Shown here piece by piece: positions 18,147 to 50,707 of a DNA stretch of 64,000 nt (positions are counted from its first letter, which is position 1; every line of letters begins with the position of its first letter). Origin of the DNA: Nanobdellota archaeon (GTDB lineage Archaea > Nanobdellota > Nanobdellia > Parvarchaeales > Parvarchaeaceae); contig JAJZNV010000005.1 of NCBI GenBank assembly GCA_021852265.1, forward strand, positions 8,402 to 72,401. The letters are read 5' to 3'. The notes under the pieces were generated by a model. That model ran no database searches. It saw nothing but the letters and a program-made list of their open reading frames with translations, and was not told where the DNA came from. The position numbers were made by a program, and so were the translations under genes.

Positions 18147-18232
18147 GGGTCCATAGTCTAGTGGTTATGACGTCCGCTTGACGAAATGTTTCAAAATGCG
18201 GAAGCTCGAGGGTTCGAACCCCTCTGGGCCCA
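18147..18232 (+). tRNA. tRNA-Val (anticodon GAC) with about 13-nt intron at 37/38
   Basis: Acceptor GGGTCCA/TGGGCCC, anticodon stem TCCGC/GCGGA, loop TTGACG + intron + T, T arm GAGGG-TTCGAAC-CCCTC. 86 nt in total. Confidence 0.75.
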
Positions 18233-26762: not shown

Positions 26763-26857
26763 GAAAGAAATTAAAATTCACAAACTGTATTTAGTGAAAA
26801 AGCCCTAAATTACATATATCTAAAGTTTTATATATAAGTACTACTCTTAAGTAATAT

Positions 26858-27586
26858 ATGATAAAAGAAAATCGGATTAGTAATGACTTAGACTCCCTAG
26901 TTTCTGATGGTCGAAAGCATGAAAAACCGCTCGAAGCTGCGTTACTAACCGAAGACCTTAGTAAATATGATATCATACTCGTTGGGGAGGCTCATACAAG
27001 TTTGGGGGATAAACTTTATGAATTAGAACTATTGAAAAAGTACAAGCCGGAATATCTGCTTTCAGAAGGGTTTGGCTGGAGTGATTTAGATTCGGATATG
27101 TGGTTACCCGAAGCCACTCAAGCGTTCGGGATAGTACAGATTGGTGTCGATGTAAATCAGTATATACATACGAACTGGCCGTTCGTAGAGAATTTAAATG
27201 CGCCGGGCGCAAACATTTATGAAAAAATCAACAACACACCCAAATTCCTCTCAGATCGCATAAGAGCGTATTTTAAAAACCCGAATGAAGAAACACTTAA
27301 ACAAAAAGACGAAGCAATCAGGGATCAGAAAAATGTGCTAAAATTTCATCGTTGGGCAACCGCCATGACTAAACATAGGGAGACTGCAATGAGCGAGAAT
27401 ATAGTTAGCTATGTTAACAATCGATTTACAAAAAATAGCCCTCTTATAGCAATTATTGGTCATCATCACTTGGATACCCCTCCAGAACATAAGAAACTGC
27501 CGATTATTCTAGAAAACCTTGAAAAAAGTGGGATAAAATATATGGTTATAATTTTGTCGCACGAAAATAGTTTAGCGCCGTTATAA
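26858..27586 (+). CDS. Hypothetical protein (weak TraB/GumN/Tiki-like GxxH signatures)
   Basis: 242 aa. ILVGEAHTS and IIGHHHL resemble the paired motifs of that superfamily. The call is weak. Confidence 0.3.
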   Translation: MIKENRISNDLDSLVSDGRKHEKPLEAALLTEDLSKYDIILVGEAHTSLGDKLYELELLKKYKPEYLLSEGFGWSDLDSDMWLPEATQAFGIVQIGVDVNQYIHTNWPFVENLNAPGANIYEKINNTPKFLSDRIRAYFKNPNEETLKQKDEAIRDQKNVLKFHRWATAMTKHRETAMSENIVSYVNNRFTKNSPLIAIIGHHHLDTPPEHKKLPIILENLEKSGIKYMVIILSHENSLAPL

Positions 27587-27773
27587 ATCCGAATGTGCAA
27601 CTTTATGGGCGGAAAACTCCGTGCCCAATTTTCGTAGTCCTGACCTTATCCCGTTCTTCTCAAGGAAGAAGAAGTTCTTCCTTGTAGTTATGCACACACA
27701 TAGTTAATTGGAAAATCAGAAAAAGTTTAGTTTTCTTTGTGTTTGCAAAAATACCCAAAGGCCGTTTCACAAT

Positions 27774-30733: not shown

Positions 30734-30829
30734 GGATTCGTAGCTTAACGGTGAAGCGCTGCTCTTATATGAGCGTGCTTTAACATTTAGGATAAGCAGA
30801 GATCGAGGGTTCGACTCCCTCCGAATCCA
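30734..30829 (+). tRNA. tRNA, probable Ile (anticodon UAU), with about 24-nt intron at 37/38
   Basis: Acceptor GGATTCG/CGAATCC, D stem GCTT/AAGC, anticodon stem CTGCT/AGCAG, loop CTTATA + intron (30770-30793) + A, T arm GAGGG-TTCGACT-CCCTC. Hand-folded only. Confidence 0.6.
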
Positions 30830-36381: not shown

Positions 36382-36993
36382 ATGAAGATATTGGCTGCCT
36401 CAGACATACATGGCGATAAAAAAGCGACGGAACAACTAGCCAAACGTGCGAAAAAAGAGAAAGTTGACTTAGTGATACTAGCAGGAGACTTATCCATATT
36501 TGGCAATGGTCTGGAAGGTCTGCTTAAACCCTTCTCAGATGTGAATAAAAAGGTGGCAATAATACCTGGAAATCACGATAGCGAGGCCGACATCTTTATG
36601 TTAAAAAAGAGATATCCAGACATCTTATACGATCTTCATAGCTATGCATTTAAAATAGGAGATATCGGATTCTTCGGTTGTGGTCTTGCGAATATAGGTC
36701 CAAATGAACTTTCTGAGAACCAGATAAAGAAGAAGATAGAAAAATCTTTCAAGTACATAAGTGATGCAAAGAAGAAGATACTGGTCGTTCATGTGCCGCC
36801 TTACAAGAGTAAACTGGATCTGATAGGCAAGGATATAAATGTGGGAAGCACAGCGGTTAGAGAAGCAATAGAAAAATTAAAGCCAAACAAAGCAATATGC
36901 GGTCATATCCATGAGACATTCAATCTCGAAGATAAATTGGGAGAAACAACGGTAATAAATGCCGGCCCAAAAGGGAAAATAATAGAGATCTGA
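36382..36993 (+). CDS. Metallophosphoesterase (YfcE/MJ0936-like)
   Basis: 203 aa. ASDIHGD, LAGDL, PGNHD, VHVPP and CGHIHE. Confidence 0.75.
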   Translation: MKILAASDIHGDKKATEQLAKRAKKEKVDLVILAGDLSIFGNGLEGLLKPFSDVNKKVAIIPGNHDSEADIFMLKKRYPDILYDLHSYAFKIGDIGFFGCGLANIGPNELSENQIKKKIEKSFKYISDAKKKILVVHVPPYKSKLDLIGKDINVGSTAVREAIEKLKPNKAICGHIHETFNLEDKLGETTVINAGPKGKIIEI

Positions 36994-37058: not shown

Positions 37059-37147
37059 GGGCCCGTCGTCTAGTGGATAGGATCGATGGCTTCGAATGCC
37101 ACTGATGGAGTGACCATCAGGCCGGGGTTCAAATCCCTGCGGGCCCT
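37059..37147 (+). tRNA. tRNA, probable Arg (anticodon UCG), with about 17-nt intron; integration target of the casposon
   Basis: Acceptor GGGCCCG/CGGGCCC, anticodon stem GATGG/CCATC, loop CTTCGA + intron + A, T arm CGGGG-TTCAAAT-CCCTG. The last 4 nt lie inside the left target-site duplication copy. Confidence 0.7.
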
Positions 37148-37157
37148 ATTCTGATTG
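37144..37157. repeat. Target-site duplication, left copy (ccctattctgattg)
   Basis: The same 14-mer abuts the outer end of each TIR in direct orientation (second copy at 50694-50707). Confidence 0.85.
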
Positions 37158-37380
37158 GGGGTATAGTATATCTCTTCCTTAATTTCACTCCTGCCCCAGT
37201 ATATATACAAAAGTATATACTTTCAATAATTCATGCCCAAATCATTTAAAATCAATATCTAATTTGTATAGGTTTCATTTAGGAGTATTCTAAGAGTAAA
37301 GTAGGGGTCATCTCGGATTCATCTGCGAGAAAACTCACTAATTAGTGATTCGTGAAAAAGGGGAAAAGTTCGAGAACTCG
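37158..37380. repeat. Left terminal inverted repeat (223 bp)
   Basis: Checked 10-mer by 10-mer: exact reverse complement of 50471-50693. Confidence 0.95.
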
Positions 37381-37553
37381 GAACAGTTTAAATAACTAAT
37401 TAGTGATGTTTGAGTAGGGTAACTAGGGATAGAGTCGAGTTACTATCAGTTAGCTAATATAATAAAAGTTTTTTAAGTTTGAAGGCCTGATTAAGAGTTG
37501 TAAAATTTACTTAAAAAGTAATCTTTATATAGATAAAATTTAACTATGTTTCA

Positions 37554-38696
37554 ATGGACCTTATATTAGAAGGGTTATTTATATTTTTTGTGATTGTTAC
37601 GACTCCGTTTACTCTTTTTCAGTTAGTACTTATTGTACGTAATAGGAAAGTTCTAAATAAAAAAATACCCCCTCCTCAATCTGGCAGGCGTATACTAGCT
37701 GTAATTGCGACTCTTGGTAAAGCAGATGATGTAGTGTTTCAAATCGTAAAACAACTCAAATCATATAATTTTAAGAATTTATACATATACATATTAGTTG
37801 AGTACGATAATAAGACTGATTATGGCGTAAAATCTATTGTAGTTCCAAAGGACTATAAAACAGATCATCATTCTAAATCCAAACATAGAGCTTTACATTA
37901 TTTTTCAGAATGGCTTAAAAAAGAAGGATATGGCAAGGAAACCTATGTAGTGCATTTAGACGATGATTCTGTAGTTTCTAAAAAATATTTAGAGTATGTG
38001 ATGGGAATGACGGCCGAGGCCGGACAGGGGGCCATAAGACTTAGGACGTATGGACACCATCTTTTTTCTACTTTAGCCGATTTTGGTAGAGTTGTAGATT
38101 GCGATACTTACTGCGCATTTTTTAATTCGAGAAGTACTCCTTTTGGAGTGCATGGGGAAGGTTTGGTAATAAGAGCCGATGTAGAAGAAGAGATTGGTTG
38201 GGATTATCAACCTACAGTAGCCGAAGATTTTATAATGGGCCAAAATATTTACTCCAAAGGGTATAAGTTTGATTTTATTCCAGGAGGTATCTACATAGCA
38301 CCACCTACAAACACAAGAGACTTTTATAATCAAAGAAGACGTTGGCACCACCACTTTTTTGAGTCGATTCACCTAGGTTACAAATTACATAAAAGTGCTA
38401 CTGCTTGGTTTGCATATCAGTATTCAATGGGTTGGGCCATGGCATTGGGGCTAGGTATCTGGATTTATGTTCTTATAGCCAGACCTAGTATCTATCCTAT
38501 ATTATTCTATATAACCACTTTTAATTTAATAGTGTCTTTTGGATTGTACCAATACGCTGCATATTACATAAAAAAATTAAAATACCATCTACTTATGTTA
38601 TTACTTCAAATCCCAGTCACCGTATATTACTCATTAACATTTTTTTACTACCTCCTTAAAAAACCTAAGAGCGATATATACATAAAAAAAGTGTAA
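37554..38696 (+). CDS. Family 2 glycosyltransferase, membrane-embedded processive type (D,D,D,QxxRW)
   Basis: 380 aa. N-terminal TM helix, VVHLDDDSVV (DxD), QRRRWHHH (Q-x-x-R-W) and C-terminal TM helices. Casposon cargo. Confidence 0.7.
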   Translation: MDLILEGLFIFFVIVTTPFTLFQLVLIVRNRKVLNKKIPPPQSGRRILAVIATLGKADDVVFQIVKQLKSYNFKNLYIYILVEYDNKTDYGVKSIVVPKDYKTDHHSKSKHRALHYFSEWLKKEGYGKETYVVHLDDDSVVSKKYLEYVMGMTAEAGQGAIRLRTYGHHLFSTLADFGRVVDCDTYCAFFNSRSTPFGVHGEGLVIRADVEEEIGWDYQPTVAEDFIMGQNIYSKGYKFDFIPGGIYIAPPTNTRDFYNQRRRWHHHFFESIHLGYKLHKSATAWFAYQYSMGWAMALGLGIWIYVLIARPSIYPILFYITTFNLIVSFGLYQYAAYYIKKLKYHLLMLLLQIPVTVYYSLTFFYYLLKKPKSDIYIKKV

Positions 38697-38727
38697 AAGT
38701 TATTAATTAAAGCAGTTTATAAATTTA

Positions 38728-39411
38728 ATGTCAACAACTATATTTGGGAAGATATCTTTTCTTAATGGTCAAATCGCTAAATTATCAATGGGTTCTAAGA
38801 TATTGAATTATGGCGGAGGTAGCATAGACATCAAAAACGGTATTGTGACAATAATTTTCAATGATACGAAGGAAAAAACGTTATTTGAGTTATACCACAT
38901 ATCTTATGATTTAATTGATAATCTCCTTTTAGGCAATGAACTTAACCTAGACAGAGCCATTATATTCTTCCCGGAAAGTGTAGAAAGAGACGGAATACAG
39001 GAACAGTTTGATTGGGATGTTTTCGAAATAAAGGCCGAACAAGTTGATATAAGAGAATTTGGAATTTTCCTTGCGGGAGATCCTCTATTTAGACAAGCTG
39101 TAAGAAACTTCCATATTGGTTTACTTGATACACGTGATGCACCGGCTCATTTTTATAGGGCCATTGAAGTTTTAAGGATAAGAGTTGCAACTCCAAATCC
39201 TAATAATAGAAGCGCCGAATGGGAGGAATTTAAGTCTAAAATATGTTTAAACAAAGAAGAGAAAGCTGACTTAATTTGTATGAAGGAAATAGCAAAAAAT
39301 TATCGACATGGTGTTAGGCTGGAAAATATAGATCATTTAAAATGGGTAGAGTTTACTAAAAAATTAATAATAAAAACTTATAATTACCTAAAAAAACAGC
39401 AGGCTTTTTGA
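38728..39411 (+). CDS. Hypothetical protein (casposon)
   Basis: 227-aa ORF with no family recognised. Confidence 0.4.
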   Translation: MSTTIFGKISFLNGQIAKLSMGSKILNYGGGSIDIKNGIVTIIFNDTKEKTLFELYHISYDLIDNLLLGNELNLDRAIIFFPESVERDGIQEQFDWDVFEIKAEQVDIREFGIFLAGDPLFRQAVRNFHIGLLDTRDAPAHFYRAIEVLRIRVATPNPNNRSAEWEEFKSKICLNKEEKADLICMKEIAKNYRHGVRLENIDHLKWVEFTKKLIIKTYNYLKKQQAF

Positions 39412-39419
39412 ATTTCTTT

Positions 39420-39674
39420 TCACTTCTCCCCCCACTGTTTTAATATCCTATCTGCTTCAAGTTCTTTTTCATAAATCCAATTATCATTTATCTCTGATAT
39501 TAACCCGATTAATTTTGGCGATCTTTTGTAAGCCGTTTTAGTTGCAGCGTAAACTTCTAATATCTTAGTAAAAACTGCATCGGCGCTTCTGCTTTTACTA
39601 TCAAGCTTTATTTGCATTATTTTTCTCCAGTTCTCGTAAGACACTGTAATGTCTTTATAGCCATTTCTTCTCAT
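39420..39674 (-). CDS. Hypothetical small protein (casposon; possibly RHH-like)
   Basis: 84 aa. Last gene of the minus-strand polB operon. The beta-strand/helix pattern ITVSYENWRKIMQIKLD is only suggestive. Confidence 0.35.
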   Translation of the reverse strand: MRRNGYKDITVSYENWRKIMQIKLDSKSRSADAVFTKILEVYAATKTAYKRSPKLIGLISEINDNWIYEKELEADRILKQWGEK

Positions 39675-39703
39675 ATTTTATGTTTTAAAGCCTAGTATTT
39701 TAA

Positions 39704-40138
39704 TCAGATTTCACCTTTTTTTATCAAGTCAGTCAATGCCCTTCCCTGCGTGTCAAGGAAATCCCTTCTCTGTTTCGCATCTGGATCTATCTTAGCCGAA
39801 GTTTTGTCTAAAACGTCCGTGTTTCTGAAGCGCAGTACGACATCGTCATCAAGCTTCTTCATAGAGGTATAATGCAGGTTTCTAAGTTTATCTGCGCAGT
39901 AGATACAGAACTTGCTGAATGGCACCATACTCTTATAGTTTTTTGATTTTATTGCGTCAGTCTTTGATAGTAGGTCTATTGCTTCATAGTAATCGGAGCT
40001 AGTTACTACAAAGTCCAGTGGGCGTCTTTTTTCCAGGTATACAATCACAAGCGCTTTGTACCATATCCTGTCTTTCGATTCAATCATATACTCATTCAAT
40101 GAACCGAATAATACGTTTTCAGGATCTTTATCTCTCAT
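39704..40138 (-). CDS. Hypothetical protein (casposon)
   Basis: 144 aa. Overlaps the polB 3' end by 11 nt, which suggests translational coupling. Confidence 0.4.
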   Translation of the reverse strand: MRDKDPENVLFGSLNEYMIESKDRIWYKALVIVYLEKRRPLDFVVTSSDYYEAIDLLSKTDAIKSKNYKSMVPFSKFCIYCADKLRNLHYTSMKKLDDDVVLRFRNTDVLDKTSAKIDPDAKQRRDFLDTQGRALTDLIKKGEI

Positions 40139-42836
40139 ATACCGCCTTGCTTTTTTGGCATCCCATCTTTGGATTTAAATCCATGTATGCCTGTATCCGT
40201 TTTATTATCTTACCCATCCTTCTGAATGGTTCTTGCTGTTTCCTTATCTGATAATACCTTCTTTTAGATATCCCTAGTCTGATTCTGTCGGTTTCTGTCA
40301 GCTCTCTCGCTTTTTCGGCCAGGTCCTCATATACTGTATAACTTCCATCTAAAACACCTACTACCTCGGACTCTTCCAGTTCATTGCTTTCTTTTCCTAT
40401 GTATTTTGTACTAGATGAGCAGAATATTACATGCTTTCTGCTTAGTTCTCCTATGTCTCCTTTAAACTTGCTCTCTGGGTGCTTCCAGTAATCCCATACC
40501 ACCTCTTCTATGGGCGTCCAGTATAATTGTGTATCCTGCTCGTATAATTTCCCACTCTTATAATCTATGAAAGGTTCATAGACTAAACTATTAAATGACT
40601 CTTTACTGCTGTTGACAAATGAATGAACTGGTATTATTGGCTCGTTAGTTTCAGGATCACGCCTACAGGATCTGCCCACCAAAACGAAATTGAACGGCCT
40701 TATAATCCCGAGCTTGGAAAATCTCTTTATTATTGACGGCTTTGTTACATTCAGCTCTGAAATCGCAAACTTACCTGAGTATTTTCGCACTATTTCATTA
40801 GGCCCTGTATTATTCAGTTCAATTTTCAGGATATCCTCCCAAATCTCTTTATTTTGAATGCCTTCTAGGTTTCCTAGCCCATGGGACGATGATGTGCGTA
40901 TAATTGGATTACCGTTTATGGTATCAAATAGAGCGTATCTCTTTGCTGATATACCATAGAAATTGACGTTTTCCAATGGTCTTCCATCCTCATCTTTCTC
41001 TACTTTAAACATGTCTGTTTCATGTTCATATGGGTTCAAAGGCTTGAAAAAGCTTTGTATTAGGTCTTTATGCTGCGGAGAGATCATTACGCTGTCTGTG
41101 TCGCAGTAAGCAAGGTACCCGCCGTTTCTTTTCAGCAGCGCTTCCGCTATACCCAAAACCAATCTAGAGGCTGATGTAAGCATAGTAGCTATGAGTGGAT
41201 TAAATTTAGAACCTGGTTTTTCAAGTCTATTCACCTTGCATATAAATTTCTTTAGGCCGTATACATCAACATTCTTATATTTTTCCAGTGGTTCAATGTC
41301 CAACTCTACGAAGATCCCGTAAGACATGGCATTAACTATGGTTTTTATCGCTTTCTGTTTAATAGTCAGCTGCCTTATCTCATTTTTATCCTTGGATATG
41401 CCTGCTTTGCGCTTTATCTCTAGTCTTTCATCTATTAGCTTCCGGACTATATTCTCTTCGGGACTTATAGTTATATCATCCATTATGTTTATCTCTCTAA
41501 GGCTATTTTGAACACCCTCACGCAGAAACTTTATAGCCGTTTTTATCTTTGGGACTTTGCCCGATAAGAATTTATCAGCTACCAGATCGGCAAGACTGTA
41601 CCATAAAGCCGTGCCGTCTGAAGAACTGACTACATTAAGCCCTATCGTATATGCATTCCTCCCATCATAATTGGATCTTATAGGCAATATATCGGAATCT
41701 GGGACTATCTCGCATATCACTGGAAGGCGTTTCCAAGTGCCTTTATCCATGAAATCTTCAATTTTTACAATTTCTAAGAAGGACTGAGTCTCGGCTGTCG
41801 CATCTTCATACCTTATCTTTTCAGCTTTTAGGAATGAGTCCATGTCTGTCAGAGTATAAACAGAAGGGTACATCGAAGTAAAGTCAAGATATGTTACTTT
41901 TGATGGCAATTTTCGGATTTTTACTTCTGTCCTACCCCCATAATATGTAGTCATAATATAACCCAATAGCTCTTTTGGAAAGTCTTTATTCTGCTCCATA
42001 AAGGGTTTTATACCGTAATTTTTAAGGTATGCTTTGGCCAGAGATGCCGGTGAGAGCAGCCTTTCGGGCGGTATATCAAGCATAAAGGTTGAGTATCTTT
42101 CCGTTAGCTTCTTATATAATTCGTAGGTAACATCCACATCGTTAATGTTATAAGCTATGTAATCTGGTGTTATTCTGCCGTGTCCATTTGGATGCGTCTT
42201 CCTGGAAATGCAGTCAAAATCCTCAGCGGCTGACTCAAGCGAGTAGCTTTTGCTTGTCAATGCAAATGCAAATGTCCTTAGATCCAGAAATCTTCCTCTG
42301 TAATATTCATATTCCTCATCTCTTTTGTCTCGGGGGGCAGTTATAGAATAAAATGACCTCTTTGAATCAAGGCTCTTTATATCTATCCTAGGCATTGTGG
42401 GATTTTTGGACAGGATAAAGGAGAACCCCCCTTTCAATGATTTTCTAGCTTCTCCGTATCTTATTGCGAGTCTGGATATGTCAAACGGCAAGTTAAACCC
42501 GACACAGAGGGCCTTTGCATTGTAAACGTAAGGCAGGAATATCCTATCAACAAAATCCGATCTGTTCATTAAAGTGAGATCATTTTCTAATGCGTATTGC
42601 TCTATTGTTTTTACATCATCTGTTTTTAAATCATCCGCGTAGAATAAGTATACAGCAAGGAGTTTGTCAGAAATGAATATCTTGCATGTTCCAAACAGCA
42701 GTTTCTGTTCTTTGTCTGTAGTAGTTTCCGTATCAAAAACAAGGATTATGTCGGTACTATAACAAAATCGCTTATCTGGTTTATCTACCAATTCAATAGG
42801 GGCATACGCCCTTAGCACTACAGTTTCATTAACCAT
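40128..42836 (-). CDS. polB: Family B DNA polymerase (casposon-encoded)
   Basis: 902 aa. ExoI LVFDTET, ExoII GFNLPFD, ExoIII YNINDVDVTYELY, Pol A YLDFTSMYPS, Pol B KTIVNAMSYGIF, Pol C YCDTDSV, KxY SAKRYALF. Confidence 0.9.
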   Translation of the reverse strand: MVNETVVLRAYAPIELVDKPDKRFCYSTDIILVFDTETTTDKEQKLLFGTCKIFISDKLLAVYLFYADDLKTDDVKTIEQYALENDLTLMNRSDFVDRIFLPYVYNAKALCVGFNLPFDISRLAIRYGEARKSLKGGFSFILSKNPTMPRIDIKSLDSKRSFYSITAPRDKRDEEYEYYRGRFLDLRTFAFALTSKSYSLESAAEDFDCISRKTHPNGHGRITPDYIAYNINDVDVTYELYKKLTERYSTFMLDIPPERLLSPASLAKAYLKNYGIKPFMEQNKDFPKELLGYIMTTYYGGRTEVKIRKLPSKVTYLDFTSMYPSVYTLTDMDSFLKAEKIRYEDATAETQSFLEIVKIEDFMDKGTWKRLPVICEIVPDSDILPIRSNYDGRNAYTIGLNVVSSSDGTALWYSLADLVADKFLSGKVPKIKTAIKFLREGVQNSLREINIMDDITISPEENIVRKLIDERLEIKRKAGISKDKNEIRQLTIKQKAIKTIVNAMSYGIFVELDIEPLEKYKNVDVYGLKKFICKVNRLEKPGSKFNPLIATMLTSASRLVLGIAEALLKRNGGYLAYCDTDSVMISPQHKDLIQSFFKPLNPYEHETDMFKVEKDEDGRPLENVNFYGISAKRYALFDTINGNPIIRTSSSHGLGNLEGIQNKEIWEDILKIELNNTGPNEIVRKYSGKFAISELNVTKPSIIKRFSKLGIIRPFNFVLVGRSCRRDPETNEPIIPVHSFVNSSKESFNSLVYEPFIDYKSGKLYEQDTQLYWTPIEEVVWDYWKHPESKFKGDIGELSRKHVIFCSSSTKYIGKESNELEESEVVGVLDGSYTVYEDLAEKARELTETDRIRLGISKRRYYQIRKQQEPFRRMGKIIKRIQAYMDLNPKMGCQKSKAVYER

Positions 42837-43302
42837 GCTTGTCTGCCCCCAGTAAAGTTGATATCGTGTAACATAAAGAGTTTGACAAGAATAATGCAGA
42901 AGCTTCGTTTAGTTTTACGTACCGAAGCATTAATATGTCGGATATTCCCTGTAGTAAAAAGGCATTTCTAACGTTTTCTGTTTGATCGGCAAGCTCCCAT
43001 CTTTTGTCCCATACCATCTGCCTTTTTGATAGTTCCTGGTGGCATGATTTACACACGGTTAAGACTATATTCGGGTTATGCTTCCATCCGGACGGATGGT
43101 GCAGTTCTGAATCATTATCTTTTATCAGTTTGTCGCATACCTTACAGATTGGGCTACGGAGAAATTCCTCATTATTGGATATTATAAAATTAATAAGTTT
43201 AATTAAATCAGACAGCTCTTTAGATAGGTTTTTAATATAATCCTCTTCAGCTTTCTTTAATTCAGAATTCAATTTTACCAGTAAACTTTCAGTCGGTGGC
43301 AT
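42829..43302 (-). CDS. HNH-type nuclease-like protein (casposon)
   Basis: 157 aa. CKVCDKLI...ELHHPSGWKHNPNIVLTVCKSCHQELS is an HNH-like CxxC...HH...N...CxxCH arrangement. Overlaps the polB start by 8 nt. Confidence 0.6.
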   Translation of the reverse strand: MPPTESLLVKLNSELKKAEEDYIKNLSKELSDLIKLINFIISNNEEFLRSPICKVCDKLIKDNDSELHHPSGWKHNPNIVLTVCKSCHQELSKRQMVWDKRWELADQTENVRNAFLLQGISDILMLRYVKLNEASALFLSNSLCYTISTLLGADKHG

Positions 43303-43966
43303 AGATGGAATAAAATTCAGGCTCCTCCCTCCTCTCCACTATTTCGAGAATCTTTTTCAGATCAGTTTCAAATGGATAAAACTTTAGATTTGAATCGAAA
43401 ACTCCACGGTTCTTAAATGCTTCTAACCTTTCTGGTTCGTTTTTGAAAATGAACCAGCGAACCGCATCAAGATATTGTCCAAGCAAAGATGCCTCTCTAG
43501 AATTATTTAGTTCAATTATAAGATCATTAGAATTTGAATATATGTGCATTATTCTTGGTATCTCGTCACTTGGATTAACAATCCATTTATTGCCCACTTT
43601 ACGGAAAGCGCCTGTGGCTCTTACAACATCAGAAAACTTAATGCCGTTGCTTTTAGCTATTTGAACAGGATCTCTATCTGGAAAGCGCCTAGATTCACTT
43701 ACGACTTTAAGGGCCATTTCTCTTTGTATTTTTTGCTTTGATGTCAACTTATTCCAAGGTCGCTGGTATAACGGCTTTCTTTTAGGATACCTTAAAGGAT
43801 TAGAGCCGTGTCCTCTTAGTTCCCTTAAAGTCGCATTCGGATATTTTGCATGTGCTTTTATAATGCGCTGAACGTATGGGCTGTTTGGATTCTTTTGCGC
43901 CGCTAACCACTCTTCAAACGTCCGAAACCTCCCAGAGAGCCCCATGATTAATATCTGGTCTCCCAT
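43289..43966 (-). CDS. Hypothetical protein (casposon, first gene of polB operon)
   Basis: 225 aa. Overlaps the downstream HNH gene by 14 nt. No family recognised. Confidence 0.4.
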   Translation of the reverse strand: MGDQILIMGLSGRFRTFEEWLAAQKNPNSPYVQRIIKAHAKYPNATLRELRGHGSNPLRYPKRKPLYQRPWNKLTSKQKIQREMALKVVSESRRFPDRDPVQIAKSNGIKFSDVVRATGAFRKVGNKWIVNPSDEIPRIMHIYSNSNDLIIELNNSREASLLGQYLDAVRWFIFKNEPERLEAFKNRGVFDSNLKFYPFETDLKKILEIVERREEPEFYSIYATD

Positions 43967-43975
43967 GAATAAATA

Positions 43976-44004
43976 CGTTATAGCGTACTTAGTTCGTTAT
44001 AGCG
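43976..44004. promoter_or_regulatory. Two copies of CGTTATAGCG (43976-43985, 43995-44004) in the 66-bp divergent promoter region; candidate operator
   Basis: Direct 10-mers 19 bp apart, between the divergent operons. A TATA-like tatttata follows at about 44011-44018. Confidence 0.3.
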
Positions 44005-44032
44005 AAAAGTATTTATAGGTGGGATAACTTAA

Positions 44033-45097
44033 GTGTATATGGTAAATAATAATAAGACACTTAAAAAGATAGAAAATAAATATGAGATTTTGGGGTACTT
44101 ATTTTCCAAGTCTAATCCAGTAACTTCGGCCGATTTGATTAAAGAAATACGCGGTATGAAGAGAACTGCATTTTTTAGTAATTTAAGAGATTTGGTAGAT
44201 AAAGGATATGTCTCTAAAACATATATAAATGGGGGTCCGGTCTATACACTGACACCTAAAGGAATAGATTACTACAAAAAAGATGTTTGGAGGGTCATAT
44301 CAGACCTTATGAGTTTCCAAGAGTATGACTATGGGGGGGATAATGATTCAGGCTTGCATACAATGTTTCAAGGTGTTTATTTTAATATTTTTCAATCTAG
44401 TGGAAAATCAGCACTTTTAGATTTAAAGAAAAGTAGTGATGAGATAAAAGATTCAATAATAAACCGTATATCTAATCAGATAAAAATGGCTTTAAACGCA
44501 AAAACTCTGCCTAAAGTGAATCCTGGAGCTAAAGTGATATTCGCTTTAGATATAGACTATGAACAAATGTACCAAAGGATAAATACACTAAGAATATTTA
44601 TAGATGATCTAAATGAGGATGTTTCTTATATCTTTAAAGATACAAGGCTTGGTTTCTTTCATGAGGAGGATAAAAGGCGATTTAATCTTGAGATGTTATT
44701 TAAGATCTTATCCGAATTGGAAAATTTTCTTGGTAAGAGCATCGAAAAGAAGATAAATAAGCTTCTTGATTACATATCTGATAATGAAGAGGAGTTCTTG
44801 GAATTTATAAACGGCGCTTTAGATACGGAGCTGTTAAACTGTGTAATAGAAGATGTCCGAAAAAATAAGCATCCCTTGGATGATCCGGAGATAAAAAATA
44901 AGCTTGTTGAAGTAGAGCTTACTCCTGGTAAATTTGGTGTTCGCATCTTAACTGGAACTTATCTAGATGTCGCGCTTTATCTTTTACATAAAAATAAAGA
45001 ATTAGTAGCTAAAATAGAAAAGTTTACAAAAGAAAATCGTGATAAAGAAGATGATATTGTGAAAAATATCTTAAAAAACGGGGTAAGAAAAGTATGA
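44033..45097 (+). CDS. Winged-helix DNA-binding protein (casposon)
   Basis: 354 aa. N-terminal wHTH ILGYLFSKSNPVTSADLIKEIRGMKRTAFFSNLRDLVDKGYVSKTYINGGPVYTLTPKG. ATG at 44039 is an alternative start. ATGA overlap with cas1. Confidence 0.55.
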   Translation: MYMVNNNKTLKKIENKYEILGYLFSKSNPVTSADLIKEIRGMKRTAFFSNLRDLVDKGYVSKTYINGGPVYTLTPKGIDYYKKDVWRVISDLMSFQEYDYGGDNDSGLHTMFQGVYFNIFQSSGKSALLDLKKSSDEIKDSIINRISNQIKMALNAKTLPKVNPGAKVIFALDIDYEQMYQRINTLRIFIDDLNEDVSYIFKDTRLGFFHEEDKRRFNLEMLFKILSELENFLGKSIEKKINKLLDYISDNEEEFLEFINGALDTELLNCVIEDVRKNKHPLDDPEIKNKLVEVELTPGKFGVRILTGTYLDVALYLLHKNKELVAKIEKFTKENRDKEDDIVKNILKNGVRKV

Positions 45098-46272
45098 AAC
45101 CGCTATTAATCTCTGGTTTTGGGAGCTTCTTAAGCGTTGACAGGCGCAAACTAATAGTTTACAATACTTTTACTAAAGAAAAGTTTGAATTTTACCCCCA
45201 TCAGATAGAATATGATACAATAATAATAGACGGCCACTCTGGCGCTGTATCCTTTGATGCAATGAGATGGATAGCCAAGCATGATATAGCTTTAACCCTG
45301 CTGAATTGGAATGGGAATGTTCTTAGCACTCTGCAGCCTAAAGAGCCAGTTTCTGGAAAGCTTAAAATTGCACAGTACAAATCTTATCTTAATAAAGAAA
45401 GGCGTATAAACCTAGCTTCAGAGATAATAAAAGCCAAAATAAACAAATCGTATGAAATACTGGAAAAACTCTCCGTATATTACAAAGATCTGAAAATAAA
45501 TGATGTAAAAGCAAGCTTCGATAAAGAAGCCAGTCAAACTAAATTAGAGAGTATTAACTATATAATGATGTACGAAGGAAGGGTAGCCGATTTATACTGG
45601 AAAAACATGGCTAAAATCTTTAATTATTTAGCTCCGGAATTCAATTTCAAGTCTAGAAAAGGGAAATCGTATTCCTGGAACATGAATGCATCCGATGAAA
45701 TAAATGCCATGCTAAACTACGGATATGCCATTTTGGAAACACTGGTTAGAAAATATGTAAATGCCATCGGATTGGATCAAGATATCGGATTCTTGCACGA
45801 ACTAGCTAATTCGAGGGCTAGCCTAATTTACGACTTGCAGGAATTGTACAGATGGGTAATAGATCTTAGTGTTATCCAGGTTTTAGAGGATAAGAAGCTT
45901 AAGAAGAGCGACTTCATAGTCACTGAGAACTATAATATAAGACTTAGGGAAAGTGCTGCAAAGATGCTAATAAATAAGATAAAAGTTAACTTCAATAGCA
46001 CGTCTGTTTACAAGGGCAAAAATAGGGCCTTGGAATTCACCTTACTGGACAACATAAGAAAGCTGGCCGATCATGTATCCGATAGATCAAATGTTCTTGA
46101 GTTTTACATTCCGGAGGTAAAGATTGACAGAAACGATGACATAGCGGTAAGAGATAAAATATTGAGCATTACGCCTGCTGAAAGGAAAAAGCTTAAGATA
46201 AACAAAAGCACATTATGGTACAGGCAGAAAGCTATAAAGAATAGAAAAAGGATTAAACTATACAAACAATGA
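45094..46272 (+). CDS. cas1: Cas1-family integrase (casposase) with C-terminal HTH
   Basis: 392 aa. Cas1 motifs MMYEGRVADLYW (Glu), NAMLNYGYAILE, GFLHE (His) and LIYDLQELYRW (Asp). Basic C-terminal HTH-like tail KINKSTLWYRQKAIKNRKR. Confidence 0.85.
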   Translation: MKPLLISGFGSFLSVDRRKLIVYNTFTKEKFEFYPHQIEYDTIIIDGHSGAVSFDAMRWIAKHDIALTLLNWNGNVLSTLQPKEPVSGKLKIAQYKSYLNKERRINLASEIIKAKINKSYEILEKLSVYYKDLKINDVKASFDKEASQTKLESINYIMMYEGRVADLYWKNMAKIFNYLAPEFNFKSRKGKSYSWNMNASDEINAMLNYGYAILETLVRKYVNAIGLDQDIGFLHELANSRASLIYDLQELYRWVIDLSVIQVLEDKKLKKSDFIVTENYNIRLRESAAKMLINKIKVNFNSTSVYKGKNRALEFTLLDNIRKLADHVSDRSNVLEFYIPEVKIDRNDDIAVRDKILSITPAERKKLKINKSTLWYRQKAIKNRKRIKLYKQ

Positions 46273-46287
46273 TAATTTAAACTATTT

Positions 46288-46704
46288 CTAAAATAATCTT
46301 GGAGGCCTACGTTCTTTTAAACCTGTAATTGGGTTAATCCAATACTCTCCTTTTTCTTTTTTATGTGCCCTTTTTTGTCGTATTTCTTTTACTCTATCAT
46401 CGTTAGTTTTTTGGGCATGACAAGTGGCACATAGTGCTTGTATATTTGATATGTCAGTTTCCCCTCCCTTTGAATGGGGTTTAATATGGTCGTATTGGGT
46501 AGCAGAGGGTATTAATTGTTTACCACATATCGCACATTTGCCATGCTGCCTTTCCCATACCTTGTTTTTTTCCGATTTACTTATTTGTCTTTTATGGTCC
46601 TTTTTATTAGATTTTGGACTTTGCCAGATAGAATTTAAGCCTAGGGAATTGTTCTTTTTTATTTTATTACCAAAAATATCATAATTACTGTCTAAAATAC
46701 CCAT
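46288..46704 (-). CDS. HNH endonuclease (casposon)
   Basis: 138 aa. HGKCAICGKQL...YDHIKPHSKGGETDISNIQALCATCHAQK is a canonical HNH motif. Confidence 0.8.
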   Translation of the reverse strand: MGILDSNYDIFGNKIKKNNSLGLNSIWQSPKSNKKDHKRQISKSEKNKVWERQHGKCAICGKQLIPSATQYDHIKPHSKGGETDISNIQALCATCHAQKTNDDRVKEIRQKRAHKKEKGEYWINPITGLKERRPPRLF

Positions 46705-46778
46705 TATCGATGTAGTATTTCTTTATTTAAATAAGTTTATGCCATTTCGGTTTCTCTAAAACTATGTTGTAACTATTT

Positions 46779-47414
46779 TTACTTATACAATAAAACATGT
46801 TTAGGAAAGTGGAGTAGAAGATAAAATGTATTAGAAATTGAATTCCTATAATCATCTTTTATATATGAAGTTATGCAGAATGGTTGCAAAGAAGTATCAA
46901 TTTTCATTCGTGGGTAAGTTTTGGTTTCTTTTTTGTTACAGTGTAGCTGAGCTATAAAGATTTTCTTCTTAATTTTCCCCCTAAGATTTTTGTATCTATA
47001 CAAACCATCACTTAAGGCTATACCATATTCACAACCATGACTAAATATAAAAACACTCTCCATGTTTTTATTTATAATAGCTCTTTCGAAATCTCGCCCT
47101 TTTTCAACAAAAATTATTTTGTAATTCAATTTTAGGTGTTTTAACCTATATAGAAGTAAGAAAATAGAATTACTGTAAATATGTATATTCTCTAAAGAAC
47201 TGCGCATCCCAGATATTTTACGTTTTCCAATTATAATTCCTACAAATTTTGTAGTTTTGTTGTATTTCTTTTTTTTGTTAGTATTTTTAGATACTCTTAA
47301 TAATATTGGCATGAAAATAATAGAGATTGCTATAAAAATAAAACTGATTACTAGCGGTATTACAAATGCTATTACAAGTATTATTGTTATTAATACAATT
47401 AATTGAAATGCCAT
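46779..47414 (-). CDS. Hypothetical membrane-anchored protein (casposon)
   Basis: 211 aa with an N-terminal hydrophobic helix pair followed by a Lys-rich linker. No family recognised. Confidence 0.35.
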   Translation of the reverse strand: MAFQLIVLITIILVIAFVIPLVISFIFIAISIIFMPILLRVSKNTNKKKKYNKTTKFVGIIIGKRKISGMRSSLENIHIYSNSIFLLLYRLKHLKLNYKIIFVEKGRDFERAIINKNMESVFIFSHGCEYGIALSDGLYRYKNLRGKIKKKIFIAQLHCNKKETKTYPRMKIDTSLQPFCITSYIKDDYRNSISNTFYLLLHFPKHVLLYK

Positions 47415-47595
47415 TTATATAATGATACAAAAACCAAATAAATATTTATAAAAGATTTTTAAGTCCGTAAGATTAGCGCCAAATGCTGATAAATAATAAA
47501 ATTTTATTATTCCCACCCTATAAAAATGGGCTAACTTGTGTTCCCCCTAATCAAAAAATAACAAATTATAATTTATTTATGGCAATTAAAAAGAT

Positions 47596-48986
47596 TTAAG
47601 AAACGCTGCCAAAGCTCACGGAAGGCATAACCCCCTCTGGAGCCAAATTTGCTAGAGCAATATAAAATATGATCATTTTTCCTGAATTAAGTTGAAAAAA
47701 TACACCTGTTTTAGCTGGAGTCGACATTTTTACACCACCAGTAATATAATTAACAAAATTTATTGAGGAGTATACATTTCTATTTAAGAAATACATTGAG
47801 AGTGGATACGTCTGATTCGCTACGGTACTTGGTATACTATAACCATAATAATCATTTGAAAGATTATATGTTTGAACACCATAATTACCATTACCGCCTG
47901 CGCCATTCAACCAATAAGTTGGCGCTGTATTTGGTCCACCAAATCCATCTCTTGCATATGAAGCATTAGAAAAAGATTGGAATAAAGTTATGTATAGATA
48001 ATCCGAAGGAGAGAAATAACCATAACTTCCGCCACTACTTGAGGATAAATGTAAACCATCATCTGCAGAACTTACGGGAGGCAACGGATTATAAGCACTA
48101 CTCCAACCATTTAATGAGGCGGAATTTTCAAAATTATTATAATAATAAAATAAATTGAACCCATCATCGTATTCTGCATAAGTGGAAGATAATTGAGGGG
48201 CTTCTCCATCGTTTACTGTATTGAAAAGATTAGTTGATGTAGGAGCGAAGCCCATGTAGATTGTCTGCTTTGAGCCTGCGGGATTGATGAGGTCAACTTG
48301 ACCCACCAGATTGCATGGGCTGATGTATAGTTTTCAAGCCAGGAATCTAGTATCTGGCCTGTTGAAGAGAAGAATTCGACGTTCTGGCCAAAAGGAGACG
48401 AAGAGATCTTTACCCAGCCTGGACTGGAGCTAGTGACGTTAATCATCTGCTGAAAAGGGGAAGGAGTGCCTTGACTTTGTGTGTTTGTTATATTTAAGGG
48501 TTCATATGAAGTAGCTGAAGAAGGGGGAGAAGCTGCTGTTCCTGAGACAGTTCCTGTTGAAGTGTATGGTCCCGGAAATATCTGTCCTGGCTCCAGGTAG
48601 GATATGACAGCAGAAACTGAATACCTTGCTCCTGGGCTGCATAATGATGATGAGGGTACCGTTACAGTCTGTATGCTATTGGGCTGGATTAGGATGTTTG
48701 GACTGTAGGTTGTCTTGCCTGATGAGGAGGTCAGGTTGATTTGGGTTATGTTTATAGGGTAACCTGTTGAGTCTCCCATTGATATTGTGAAGCTTGTTCC
48801 TCCTAGGCAGACTGCATTTATTGTTCCTAAATTGGAGAAGCCTGTTATTGTTGTTGACAGTGATGAAGAAGGTGAAAAGATACCTAGACTATATAAGACT
48901 GCTGCGACGATGACAATGACTAGTATGGCCCAGCCGTACGTCATCATATACTCCAATGCCGATTGGGATTTTCGTGGGAGACTCAT
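47596..48986 (-). pseudogene. Type IV pilin-like (class III signal peptide) surface protein with DUF2341-like domain, interrupted by a frameshift
   Basis: ORFs 48213-48986 and 47596-48306 overlap by 94 nt in different frames. Joined, they read ...AIWWVKLTSSIP / AGSKQTIYMGFAP..., a continuous DUF2341-like motif. The N-terminal 170 aa are paralogous to 49220-50404. The total length of 1391 nt is not divisible by 3. Confidence 0.65.
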
Positions 48987-49219
48987 ATAAGAGAAATAAG
49001 GGGAGTAAATAAATAGTTTTCATCGGGGCTACAGTAAACCACTTGATTAGGGCAGATTTTGCTCGAATCCAGTATTTATTACCTCGAAGGAGATTTAAAT
49101 TATGTTGTGTTCTATTAAAGTTATAGATTAAGAGAGTCATCGCCTAATAAATTCTGTTCTGCTTCAGGCGCTTAGACTTTATGTGCTTGTTTCTCTGCTA
49201 TTTGTGGTCAAGATATATA

Positions 49220-50404
49220 TTAGGAAAGCCCAGTATCCTGGTAATTACTTGTAAACAGAACATCTGAAACAATTCCATTTTTATTATTTCCGCTGTAATC
49301 CACAGCTGAACCATTCAAGGGCCAAAATACATCTATATTCATCCCACTAAGCGGTTTGCCTGTTAATCCGCTCGTGTACAATTGTTTTATTTGTGCAGGC
49401 GAAAGAGAACTATTATAGTATTGAAAGTTACTAACAAAACCATCTATTGTAGATGCTATACTTGGAGAGGATGAACTAAATATATTTGTTGGGTGTCCAT
49501 TTGGATAACCTAAATAAAAACATACGCTGCCAGGCGGCCAGCTTTCTGCCCCAGTATTAGATGAAACTAAGTTTCCATTTAAATATAAAGAATCATTATC
49601 AGTGGCGTTGTTATAAGACAGAACTGTATAGTACCATTCTCCTTGGTGTACGCTTGGACTTACTAGGTCAGGAAGATTCCATACCGATCCCCAGATAACT
49701 CCTGAGTTTAGGCCTAGGGGCGACATAGAGCCTGTGCAAAGTAATTGAATGAATGGCTGCACGGAATTCACATTAGATATTGAATTCATATAAACCCACA
49801 TCGAAAATGTTTTTGGTGAATTCGTTTCCATAGCTAAATTACTTATTTCTATTGTGCTTATCGGCGAACTACCCCCAGCGGTTGAATTTTGACCAAAGAA
49901 TTCAGCTACATATTTCGGTAAAATTAAAGAAGAAGACGTTCCAGAAACCGTTCCACTCGAGATATATGGTCCCGGGAATGTCTGACTTGGTTCAGTGTAG
50001 TTTACTGTCACAGCAAGAGAGTAGCGTGAGCCTGCTGCCGGACAAATGTTCGGAACTGAGAATATGTAACTCGAAGTAGGCTGGATTATTGGATTTGGGT
50101 CCACGGTTGAATTTGGCTTGAATGTGGAGATCTGACCAGTGGATGATTTTGCTGTGACACTAGTAATATTTATTGGGTAACCTGTGGAGTCTCCTAAGCT
50201 TATTCTTAATATTCCGTTGGCTGTGCACTCTCCCGTAACACTGCCCAGGTTGGAGAAACCGGTTACTGTTGAAGACAATGAGGATGCTGGAGAAAATATT
50301 CCCAAACTGTATAAAACCCCTGCTACTATCACAATGACTAGTATGGCCCAGCCATAAGTCATCATATACTCCAGTGCTGATTGGGATCTTCGTGGTAGAC
50401 TCAT
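49220..50404 (-). CDS. Type IV pilin-like (class III signal peptide) surface protein with C-terminal LamG/ConA-like lectin domain
   Basis: 394 aa. N-terminus MSLPRRSQSALEYMMTYGWAILVIVIVAGVL (prepilin-type signal plus hydrophobic helix). C-terminal FSMWVYMN...GEWYYTVLSYNNATDNDSLYLNGNLV is typical of Laminin-G-3-like domains. Confidence 0.7.
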   Translation of the reverse strand: MSLPRRSQSALEYMMTYGWAILVIVIVAGVLYSLGIFSPASSLSSTVTGFSNLGSVTGECTANGILRISLGDSTGYPINITSVTAKSSTGQISTFKPNSTVDPNPIIQPTSSYIFSVPNICPAAGSRYSLAVTVNYTEPSQTFPGPYISSGTVSGTSSSLILPKYVAEFFGQNSTAGGSSPISTIEISNLAMETNSPKTFSMWVYMNSISNVNSVQPFIQLLCTGSMSPLGLNSGVIWGSVWNLPDLVSPSVHQGEWYYTVLSYNNATDNDSLYLNGNLVSSNTGAESWPPGSVCFYLGYPNGHPTNIFSSSSPSIASTIDGFVSNFQYYNSSLSPAQIKQLYTSGLTGKPLSGMNIDVFWPLNGSAVDYSGNNKNGIVSDVLFTSNYQDTGLS

Positions 50405-50470
50405 ATGATAGAGAAGGCAAGAGGAAATAAATAGTTTTCATTGGACTGCGGAAAGTCAAATTTTAAACCT

Positions 50471-50693
50471 CGAGTTCTCGAACTTTTCCCCTTTTTCACG
50501 AATCACTAATTAGTGAGTTTTCTCGCAGATGAATCCGAGATGACCCCTACTTTACTCTTAGAATACTCCTAAATGAAACCTATACAAATTAGATATTGAT
50601 TTTAAATGATTTGGGCATGAATTATTGAAAGTATATACTTTTGTATATATACTGGGGCAGGAGTGAAATTAAGGAAGAGATATACTATACCCC
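50471..50693. repeat. Right terminal inverted repeat (223 bp)
   Basis: Exact reverse complement of 37158-37380. Confidence 0.95.
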
Positions 50694-50707
50694 CCCTATT
50701 CTGATTG
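50694..50707. repeat. Target-site duplication, right copy (ccctattctgattg)
   Basis: Identical to 37144-37157 and directly abuts the right TIR. Confidence 0.85.

Follow-up and report, generated by a model that had tools for sequence, protein, structure and literature searches.

What kind of element lies behind a tRNA gene of an acid-mine archaeon, and how did it arrive there? The question is raised by contig JAJZNV010000005.1 of a Parvarchaeota archaeon, from which a stretch of 64 kb was analyzed; this whole stretch is called the window, and its numbering is used for all coordinates. Casposons, transposons that replicate themselves and integrate by means of a Cas1 enzyme, are thought to be ancestral to the CRISPR adaptation machinery, and their superfamily is marked by terminal inverted repeats (TIRs) flanked by a target-site duplication (TSD) with a median length of 15 bp. 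Their natural mobility has been documented mainly in Methanosarcina mazei, and to our knowledge only three casposases have been studied so far. The sequence features described below make it highly probable that the window contains a 13,536-bp casposon of the family-2 type, integrated directly behind the tRNA-Arg(UCG) gene. It is a clean example of a known casposon type, complete and well preserved, and it is probably still mobile or active. The main added value of this locus lies in its population polymorphism, its DPANN host, and the confirmation over many natural insertions of a target rule established in vitro.

Boundaries, empty sites, and age of the insertion

A repeat search of the window located two inverted arms at 37157–37380 and 50471–50694, each 224 nt long and 100% complementary to the other. 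They comprise a 223-nt repeat extended by the pair G37157/C50694. The exact complementarity of 37158–37380 and 50471–50693 noted in a preliminary description of this DNA is thus reproduced, and the same pair accounts for the ambiguity of G37157 that the description had recorded. The 14-mer CCCTATTCTGATTG occurs exactly twice in the window, each copy abutting an arm on its outer side, and its expectation by chance is zero (0 in 100 shuffles of the window). The sequence is GATTG/GGGGTATAG across the left junction and CTATACCCC/CCCTATT across the right one. The symmetric ends (GGGG...CCCC) favor an element at 37158–50693 with a 14-bp duplication, while the other parse combines a 13-bp duplication with asymmetric ends. 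The favored parse gives the following features:

37144–37157, forward strand: left copy of the 14-bp TSD, opening with the final 4 nt of the tRNA; single copy in the empty site
37158–37380, forward strand: left TIR, 223 bp, with the terminus 5'-GGGGTATAGTATATC; 100% complementary to the right arm
37158–50693, no strand assigned: whole casposon with a length of 13,536 bp, as delimited by TIRs and TSD
50471–50693, reverse strand: right TIR, 223 bp (repeat search)
50694–50707, forward strand: right copy of the 14-bp TSD (repeat search and sequence)

The bases CCCT at 37144–37147 are common to the start of the 14-mer and the tRNA's 3' terminus, where they form three acceptor-stem bases and the discriminator. 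The 3' strand of the acceptor stem lies at 37140–37146 and the discriminator at T37147; the tRNA 3' end is preserved, as had been proposed. A 12-bp palindrome, CACTAATTAGTG, is found once in each TIR (37335–37346 and 50503–50514) and again just inside the left TIR (37393–37404); it may be a candidate binding site for a DNA-binding protein of the element.

The boundaries can be compared with genomes that lack the insertion. The protein encoded upstream of the tRNA gene (36382–36993) has an identical sequence on 23 contigs read. Loci L005–L011 and 10 similar ones carry an empty site, in which the tRNA, preceded by the upstream gene, directly adjoins the gene found to the right of the element in the window. 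In L005–L011, this site reads ...gcgggCCCTATTCTGATTGaagaggg... and contains a single 14-mer. The flanks of the empty sites are 99.7–100% identical to the window in BLAST alignments, and those of L007 reach 100% and 99.99% over approximately 10 kb per side. The alignments stop exactly at 37157 and resume at 50694 with a 14-nt overlap, which, together with the single 14-mer, proves both the 14-bp duplication and the boundaries. Because near-identical genomes from other samples carry this single-copy site, the 14-mer is a true TSD, and the insertion is recent and polymorphic, in agreement with recent mobility, one of the two readings offered in the preliminary description. Perfect 223-bp TIRs and a 14-bp TSD checked against empty sites thus delimit the element in the manner of a casposon. 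Contigs L001–L004, from other samples, contain the element alone at 99.7–100% identity and break inside or at the TIR ends.

The identity of the two TIRs could alternatively result from continual homogenization, in which one end is copied from the other during replication or repair, rather than from a very recent insertion. The detectable TIRs of 18 related elements are 31–137 nt long and 78–98% identical, and the perfect 223-nt pair stands out among them; published casposon TIRs range from 25 to 602 nt. TIRs also diverge between lineages, as indicated by a left TIR 93% identical to that of the window element in the same site of L012, while the left TIR of the window element is identical in the independent assemblies L002 and L013. 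However, the isogenic empty sites and the 99.7–100% identical copies across samples demonstrate recency independently of the TIRs, so youth alone can explain their identity. Homogenization is a serious but less likely explanation.

The same site is also found in other states. L012 (10776–11343; sample ERZ27237541) carries a different casposon variant at the same tRNA gene, with 15 differences in the left TIR and an unrelated interior beyond it. In L093–L095, a cas1 gene with 94–96% nucleotide identity (Cas1, 97%) is followed by a gene for 604–608 amino acids (aa) in place of the HNH gene. L012 and L093–L095 suggest modular exchange among co-occurring casposons; no sequence overlap between the L012 variant and L093–L095 was found when their linkage was tried. 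In L013 (10776–11240; GCA_027370475.1), window positions 37158–37241 are joined to approximately 50301–50686, leaving only the first 85 nt of the left TIR and the final ~390 nt of the element, with a CCCAAA microhomology where they meet. Four further places are similar, and the arrangement represents either an internally deleted, possibly non-autonomous derivative of ~470 bp or a misassembly. One site is thereby seen in five states within a natural population: filled, empty (isogenic), variant-occupied, a possible deletion derivative, and the intact element. A stretch of ~867 bp with a 242-aa open reading frame (ORF) at 26772–27638 is present in the window, L006, L007, L009, and L013, and absent from L005, L008, and L012, which are otherwise more than 99% identical; it constitutes a second presence/absence polymorphism in the same population.

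The target tRNA gene and the target code

The preliminary description had named the target tRNA-Arg(UCG), and the following features were assigned at this gene:

37059–37147, forward strand: target tRNA, very likely tRNA-Arg(UCG), 89 nt as encoded, anticodon TCG at 37092–37094 (ARAGORN; Rfam RF00005, 46.7 bits)
37096–37112, forward strand: predicted 17-nt tRNA intron at the canonical 37/38 position (Rfam alignment, spliced form, orthologues)
37129–37135, forward strand: TCAAATC, T-loop coding, putative casposase recognition motif ('leader'), 8 bp upstream of the duplicated segment

In the Rfam alignment, GAUGG (27–31) is paired with CCAUC (56–60), the loop is CUUCGAA, and the remaining nucleotides form an insert in the anticodon loop. 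The gene thus conforms to a class I cloverleaf in which the anticodon stem has 5 bp, the loop reads CUUCGAA, and the insert follows position 37. Excision of 37096–37112 yields a perfect 72-nt tRNA-Arg(tcg) in ARAGORN. The predicted intron forms a 4-bp helix, CUUC/GGAG, with a 3-nt 3' bulge and a loop instead of a second helix, and the same helix-plus-bulge architecture occurs in the intron of the tRNA-Val(GAC) gene at 18147–18232. The fold was assessed with eight syntenic orthologues downstream of the same protein gene, whose product is 54–86% identical. In this set, 98.6% of the cells are paired under the Arg-plus-intron fold, three compensatory pairs occur in the anticodon stem (GAUGG/CCAUC replaced by AGCGG/CCGCU in L104), and the insert length varies from 12 to 18 nt. 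A splicing endonuclease of broad specificity is known from ARMAN-type archaea (PMC3488258). Taken together, the target is very likely tRNA-Arg(UCG) with a predicted 17-nt intron.

The competing assignment is a class II tRNA-Ser(CGA) with a long variable arm and no intron, which ARAGORN reports with and without intron search and which we accepted at first. The minimum-free-energy fold forms a 7-bp helix, CUGAUGG/CCAUCAG, that suits this assignment, although such folds give no cloverleaf for the spliced or unspliced tRNA and were left out as evidence. A compensatory change from U45:A61 in the window to A:U in other orthologues fits the Ser fold, and the variation of 29:43 among U-A, U-G, and C-G is compatible with it; neither has an explanation under Arg. 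In contrast, the Rfam model puts the insert in the anticodon loop, and the Ser fold requires an extra nucleotide between the D and anticodon stems as well as an A x C mismatch that is unpaired in 7/7 orthologues. It pairs 85.5% of the cells, with mismatches in L102 and L103, and the L104 insert, only 12 nt long, lacks the 5' strand of the supposed variable arm. The D arm, with its 4-bp stem, 8-nt loop, GGAUA, and A20, resembles that of DPANN tRNA-Arg, whereas the class II tRNA-Ser and tRNA-Leu compared have 3-bp D stems. Furthermore, the discriminator is U or A, as opposed to G73 in the genuine tRNA-Ser genes compared. The Ser(CGA) call was dropped on the basis of the Rfam alignment and the orthologue covariation, which favor the original tRNA-Arg(UCG) assignment, and a serine tRNA is improbable here. 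The call arises because the 17-nt intron is misread as a long variable arm. As a practical warning, an archaeal tRNA-Arg that carries an intron can be reported by ARAGORN as a false tRNA-Ser. Two more intron-bearing tRNAs were found with Rfam and missed by default ARAGORN, namely the Val(GAC) gene mentioned above, with a 13-nt insert, and a CAU/UAU-type tRNA at 30734–30829, with a 24–25-nt insert, such that 3/5 tRNA genes in the window are interrupted.

The position of the insertion follows a known code. The A. boonei casposase requires TCAAATC at −15 to −9 and CC at +1/+2, as determined by deletion and point mutagenesis (Beguin et al., PMC6614799). The window target consists of TCAAATC (37129–37135), cctgcggg, and CC (37144–37145), with the same motif and spacing. 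Only 2 TCAAATC-N8-CC sites exist in the 64-kb window, and the T-loops of the other four tRNA genes read TTCGAA(T/C)C. TCAAATC corresponds to tRNA positions 55–61, the N8 spacer ends at 69, and the duplication starts at 70, which explains why exactly four tRNA bases are duplicated.

A genome-collection scan with Cas1 alignment yielded 78 related loci with 48–78% identity, from Micrarchaeota, Nanoarchaeota, Nitrosopumilus, Nitrosotalea, Nitrososphaera, Methanocellaceae, and Thermoplasmatota. Relatives with detectable ends have TSDs of 14–16 bp that overlap the tRNA 3' end. A motif scan found the layout TCAAATC-N8-14 nt-GGG(G)TA.. in 19/19 related casposon junctions, only 5 of which have a TSD beginning with CC. 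ARAGORN, whose calls may be wrong for intron-bearing genes, assigned the tRNAs at these junctions to Glu, Pro, Arg(TCT), Arg(GCG), Ser(GCT), Val, Met, and Gln. The closest junction-bearing relatives, L014 (67%) and L058 (78%, partial match), lie at Arg(TCT) and Gln(CTG), respectively, which indicates that the tRNA used changes readily. The TCAAATC-N8 rule, measured in vitro for one thermophile, therefore holds over 20 natural insertions in several archaeal phyla, and target choice becomes predictable. Published family-2 targets are tRNA-Pro, tRNA-Leu, and tRNA-Arg (Table S1 and Figure S2 of PMC4046053). The different target specificity considered in the preliminary description is therefore not supported, since tRNA-Arg is already the target of MetArv-C1 (Table S1 of PMC4046053) and the site obeys the code of the A. 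boonei casposase.

Gene content and a model of integration

The following genes of the element were annotated:

37554–38696, forward strand: cargo, family-2 glycosyltransferase, 380 aa (Pfam PF13632, E 7.6e-24)
40128–42836, reverse strand: family B DNA polymerase (PolB), 902 aa (Pfam PF03175 1.3e-10, PF00136 4.5e-6)
42829–43302, reverse strand: small core gene directly upstream of polB, 157 aa (weak Zn-ribbon-like Pfam matches)
43289–43966, reverse strand: core gene, first of the polB operon, 225 aa, no family match (tblastn)
44039–45097, forward strand: 352-aa gene overlapping the start of cas1 (weak Pfam matches; also a gene call in L001)
45094–46272, forward strand: casposase (Cas1 homologue), 392 aa (Pfam PF01867 1.3e-58)
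46288–46704, reverse strand: HNH endonuclease, 138 aa, adjoining cas1 (Pfam PF01844 4.7e-14)
48213–48986, reverse strand: cargo, 257-aa protein with an N-terminal coding part paralogous to that of the next gene (direct repeats D1/D3)
49220–50404, reverse strand: cargo, 394-aa protein with a concanavalin/LamG-like domain (Pfam PF13385 8e-10)

The best solved relative of the Cas1 protein is the M. mazei family-2 casposase (PDB 6OPM; E 2.1e-75), with residues 1–386 aligned to 18–400; the family comparison of Cas1 was made with this casposase only. [quoted passage not shown] Its catalytic triad aligns with E161, H235, and E250 in the present protein, which are invariant in 30 homologues, and at the sequence level the alignment, which reaches residue 386 of the query and 400 of the chain, covers the HTH region. 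No Cas2 or Cas4 was detected among the window ORFs with Pfam, and no CRISPR or repeat array was found in the window. The PolB motifs FDTETT (Exo I), DFTSMYPS (motif A), and YCDTDS (motif C) are intact, and polB is conserved in 42 related loci. The protein is assigned to the CDTDS type at the motif level, by its motif C. The A. boonei casposon PolB is a member of the CDTDS group, which has relationships with the main PolB group as well as with the protein-primed one (Kazlauskas et al., PMC7544198).

Of the other core genes, tblastn matches to the 157-aa and 225-aa genes are found in syntenic positions of 28 and 35 related loci, respectively. The 352-aa protein has weak matches (S10_plectin 0.0076, MarR_2 0.066, RIH 0.01), of winged-helix type in the N-terminal part, and a helical C-terminal part; it is a candidate for a family-2 HTH protein. 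Relatives share the order of the 225-aa, 157-aa, and PolB genes leftward and of the 352-aa and Cas1 genes rightward. This interior, with its Cas1 casposase, PolB, and HNH nuclease, supports the proposal of the preliminary description that a casposase integrated the element and produced the 14-bp TSD.

The element-specific cargo comprises the glycosyltransferase, which is absent from related casposons, a DUF8168 protein, and LamG-like proteins. Direct repeats of ~80% identity at 48745–49026 and 50163–50444, spaced 1418 bp apart, cover the two rightmost cargo genes in their promoter-proximal and N-terminal coding parts, which marks these surface-protein-like genes as partial paralogues. A 218-bp segment at 48768–48985 is inverted in L001 (11529–11746), a copy otherwise 100% identical. 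The segment is flanked by a perfect 11-bp inverted repeat (TGAGTCTCCCA/TGGGAGACTCA) and includes the N-terminal coding part of the 257-aa cargo gene together with its start, from which the remainder of the gene would be uncoupled by inversion. Either a switch resembling phase variation or an error of assembly could account for this, and the element showed no invertase gene.

Apart from transposition, the ends could have been created by a virus or plasmid that integrated through att recombination by a tyrosine recombinase, with the 14-mer as the att core rather than a TSD. The tRNA 3' ends are classic att sites of archaeal integrative elements (PMC6563490), and cargo such as the glycosyltransferase and LamG-like proteins would be in keeping with such an origin. 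However, no tyrosine or serine recombinase or integrase domain was detected in any ORF of at least 60 aa, the 223-bp TIRs, Cas1, PolB, and HNH genes are present, and the repeat begins at the fixed, casposon-typical distance from TCAAATC, which leaves this origin very improbable. Equally far-fetched is an artefact in which a free or elsewhere-located element was wrongly joined to the tRNA locus: the window does come from a metagenome assembly and most other assemblies break at the TIRs, as in the element-only contigs L001–L004, but L012 and L013 are independent assemblies of the tRNA-TSD-TIR left junction, the duplication agrees exactly with the empty site, and a contig break at the TIR terminus (L002 starts at 37157) is expected of an inverted repeat in a de Bruijn graph.

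The anatomy of the element, its empty site, the intact catalytic and polymerase motifs, and the target code with its conservation in relatives are directly established. From these, we infer the order of strand transfer, the mode of replication, and the current activity. On the model of the A. boonei and M. mazei casposases, an oligomer of the enzyme would bind the tRNA gene through the T-loop-coding TCAAATC, and its first active site would come to lie at the CC opening the duplicated segment, 8 bp downstream. One casposon 3'-OH end (...CTATACCCC-3') would then be joined 5' of C37144 in the empty site, and the second 3'-OH would be linked to the other strand at a distance of 14 bp downstream. 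When the two 14-nt gaps are repaired, the 14-bp duplication would result. The left TSD copy would restore the tRNA 3' end and leave the gene intact, because the first 4 bp of the segment are tRNA positions 70–73. The element itself is presumably copied by its own PolB.

The host, the landing site, and comparison with known casposons

The host belongs to the Parvarchaeota (ARMAN-type, DPANN) and is a reduced-genome acid-mine archaeon; an orthologue of a flanking protein in Candidatus Parvarchaeum acidophilus ARMAN-5 is 76% identical. In the full-text library searched, no casposon reports for DPANN, Micrarchaeota, Parvarchaeota, or ARMAN were found. The closest other casposon with DNA is L092, with a Cas1 of 80% identity, on a contig with neither a TIR nor a tRNA. 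A metagenome scan for insertions of the element elsewhere, made with the 21-nt TIR end, returned only L096, where 33 nt at 63–95 (ERZ1669250) are nearly identical to the casposon terminus (GGGGTATAGTATATCTCTTCCTTAAT..); no casposon genes, tRNA, or upstream TCAAATC were found there, and the match is uninformative in this respect.

Other observations concern the tRNA-Arg(UCG) site downstream of the metallophosphoesterase gene, where this element, the L012 variant, and ends of another lineage in L098 and L097 are found. L098 and L097 come from related species. Behind the orthologous tRNA-Arg(UCG) of L098 (3277–3320), at a distance of 14 nt from position 70, stands GGGATAATGATATCTTCTAGAAATGGCACT, which has the TIR type of a different casposon lineage, that of L016 and L074; L097 (4080–4125) contains a degenerate version. 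No partner TIR lies within 2.5 kb of the L098 end, and the ends in L098 and L097 could be solitary or remnants. The target tRNA has two orthologues, L103 (3148–3260) and L104 (3126–3235), with a second insert of ~18 nt in the T-loop (GGGTT[...]TCAAATCC). It adjoins the casposase recognition motif on the 5' side, and no casposon end was found downstream of the tRNA in either. Randau and Soll, as quoted in PMC4090602, proposed that introns protect tRNA genes from integration. It is a rather doubtful proposition that all of the following hold jointly: that the site is a recurrent landing site in Parvarchaeota, that the T-loop intron is an evolved barrier against recognition by the casposase (n = 2), and that L013 represents an ~470-bp non-autonomous derivative. 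If true, the intron-protection idea would extend to casposons.

Membership in the casposon superfamily is indicated by a Cas1 with intact catalytic residues, unlinked to Cas2 or CRISPR, and by a PolB inside the element. The C-terminal HTH region of Cas1, the tRNA 3'-end target with the TCAAATC code, and the CDTDS-type PolB point to family 2. Among the family-2 core genes, HNH is clear, the 352-aa protein has weak winged-helix matches, and the 157-aa and 225-aa genes are conserved without a family assignment.

Some observations weigh against a recent family-2 insertion as described here. The right junction (TIR-TSD-flank) was assembled only in the contig of the window itself. The empty sites may be either pre-insertion or post-excision, because excision of an M. 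mazei casposon leaves one clean target site (PMC10359463). The two HTH proteins expected of family 2 are represented by weak matches only. In Pfam, PolB matches best to PF03175, the protein-primed model labeled 'organellar and viral', a match explained by the relationship of the CDTDS group to both the main and protein-primed groups. Finally, the 223-bp TIRs are close in length to the 225-bp TIRs of family 4 (MetMaz1FA1A3-C1-like).

Two other families were considered in view of these matches. Family 1 casposons have a protein-primed PolB, a compact Cas1 without an HTH, and a target at the 3' terminus of a protein gene such as aEF-2. The PF03175 match is the sole pointer to this family, which was rejected on the basis of the CDTDS motif, the C-terminal extension of Cas1, and the tRNA target. 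Family 4 casposons are intergenic, lack the HTH/HEAT gene, and encode large TPR proteins as well as Zn-finger and REX1-like ones. Pfam searches of the present element detected none of these, TPR and REX1 domains included, and its target is a tRNA gene, so that only the TIR length matches and family 4 was rejected.

Within family 2, the M. mazei casposons at tRNA-Leu (MetMaz1FA1A3-C2; 6OPM) resemble the element in that the casposases align over their full length, the final 4 bp of the tRNA open the 14-bp TSD, and strains differ in the presence of the insertion. Published family-2 TIR ends are GGGATATAGG/GGGTTATAGG (PMC4046053), and the M. mazei end GGGATATAGG resembles GGGGTATAG of this element. 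In contrast, the TSD of the M. mazei casposons starts with CGCA and their TIRs are 31–59 bp long, compared with CCCT and 223 bp here, and the M. mazei Cas1 scores 258 bits in phmmer, far below the 460–830 bits of DPANN and thaumarchaeal relatives. By its published table entry (PMC4046053) rather than its sequence, MetArv-C1 of Methanocella arvoryzae is similar in its tRNA-Arg target, 14-bp TSD, long TIR (134 bp), and size (~14.5 kb).

AciBoo-C1 of A. boonei, also a family-2 casposon, shares the Cas1 with a C-terminal HTH region, the CDTDS PolB, the HNH nuclease, and the TIRs. Its 14–15-bp TSD likewise covers the last 4 nt of the tRNA, and its target code, TCAAATC-N8-CC, is identical. The two elements differ in the target tRNA (Arg(UCG) here, Pro in AciBoo-C1), TIR length (223 and 40 bp), and overall size (13.5 and 9.1 kb), and the present element carries glycosyltransferase and LamG-like cargo in a DPANN host, whereas the host of AciBoo-C1 is a euryarchaeon.

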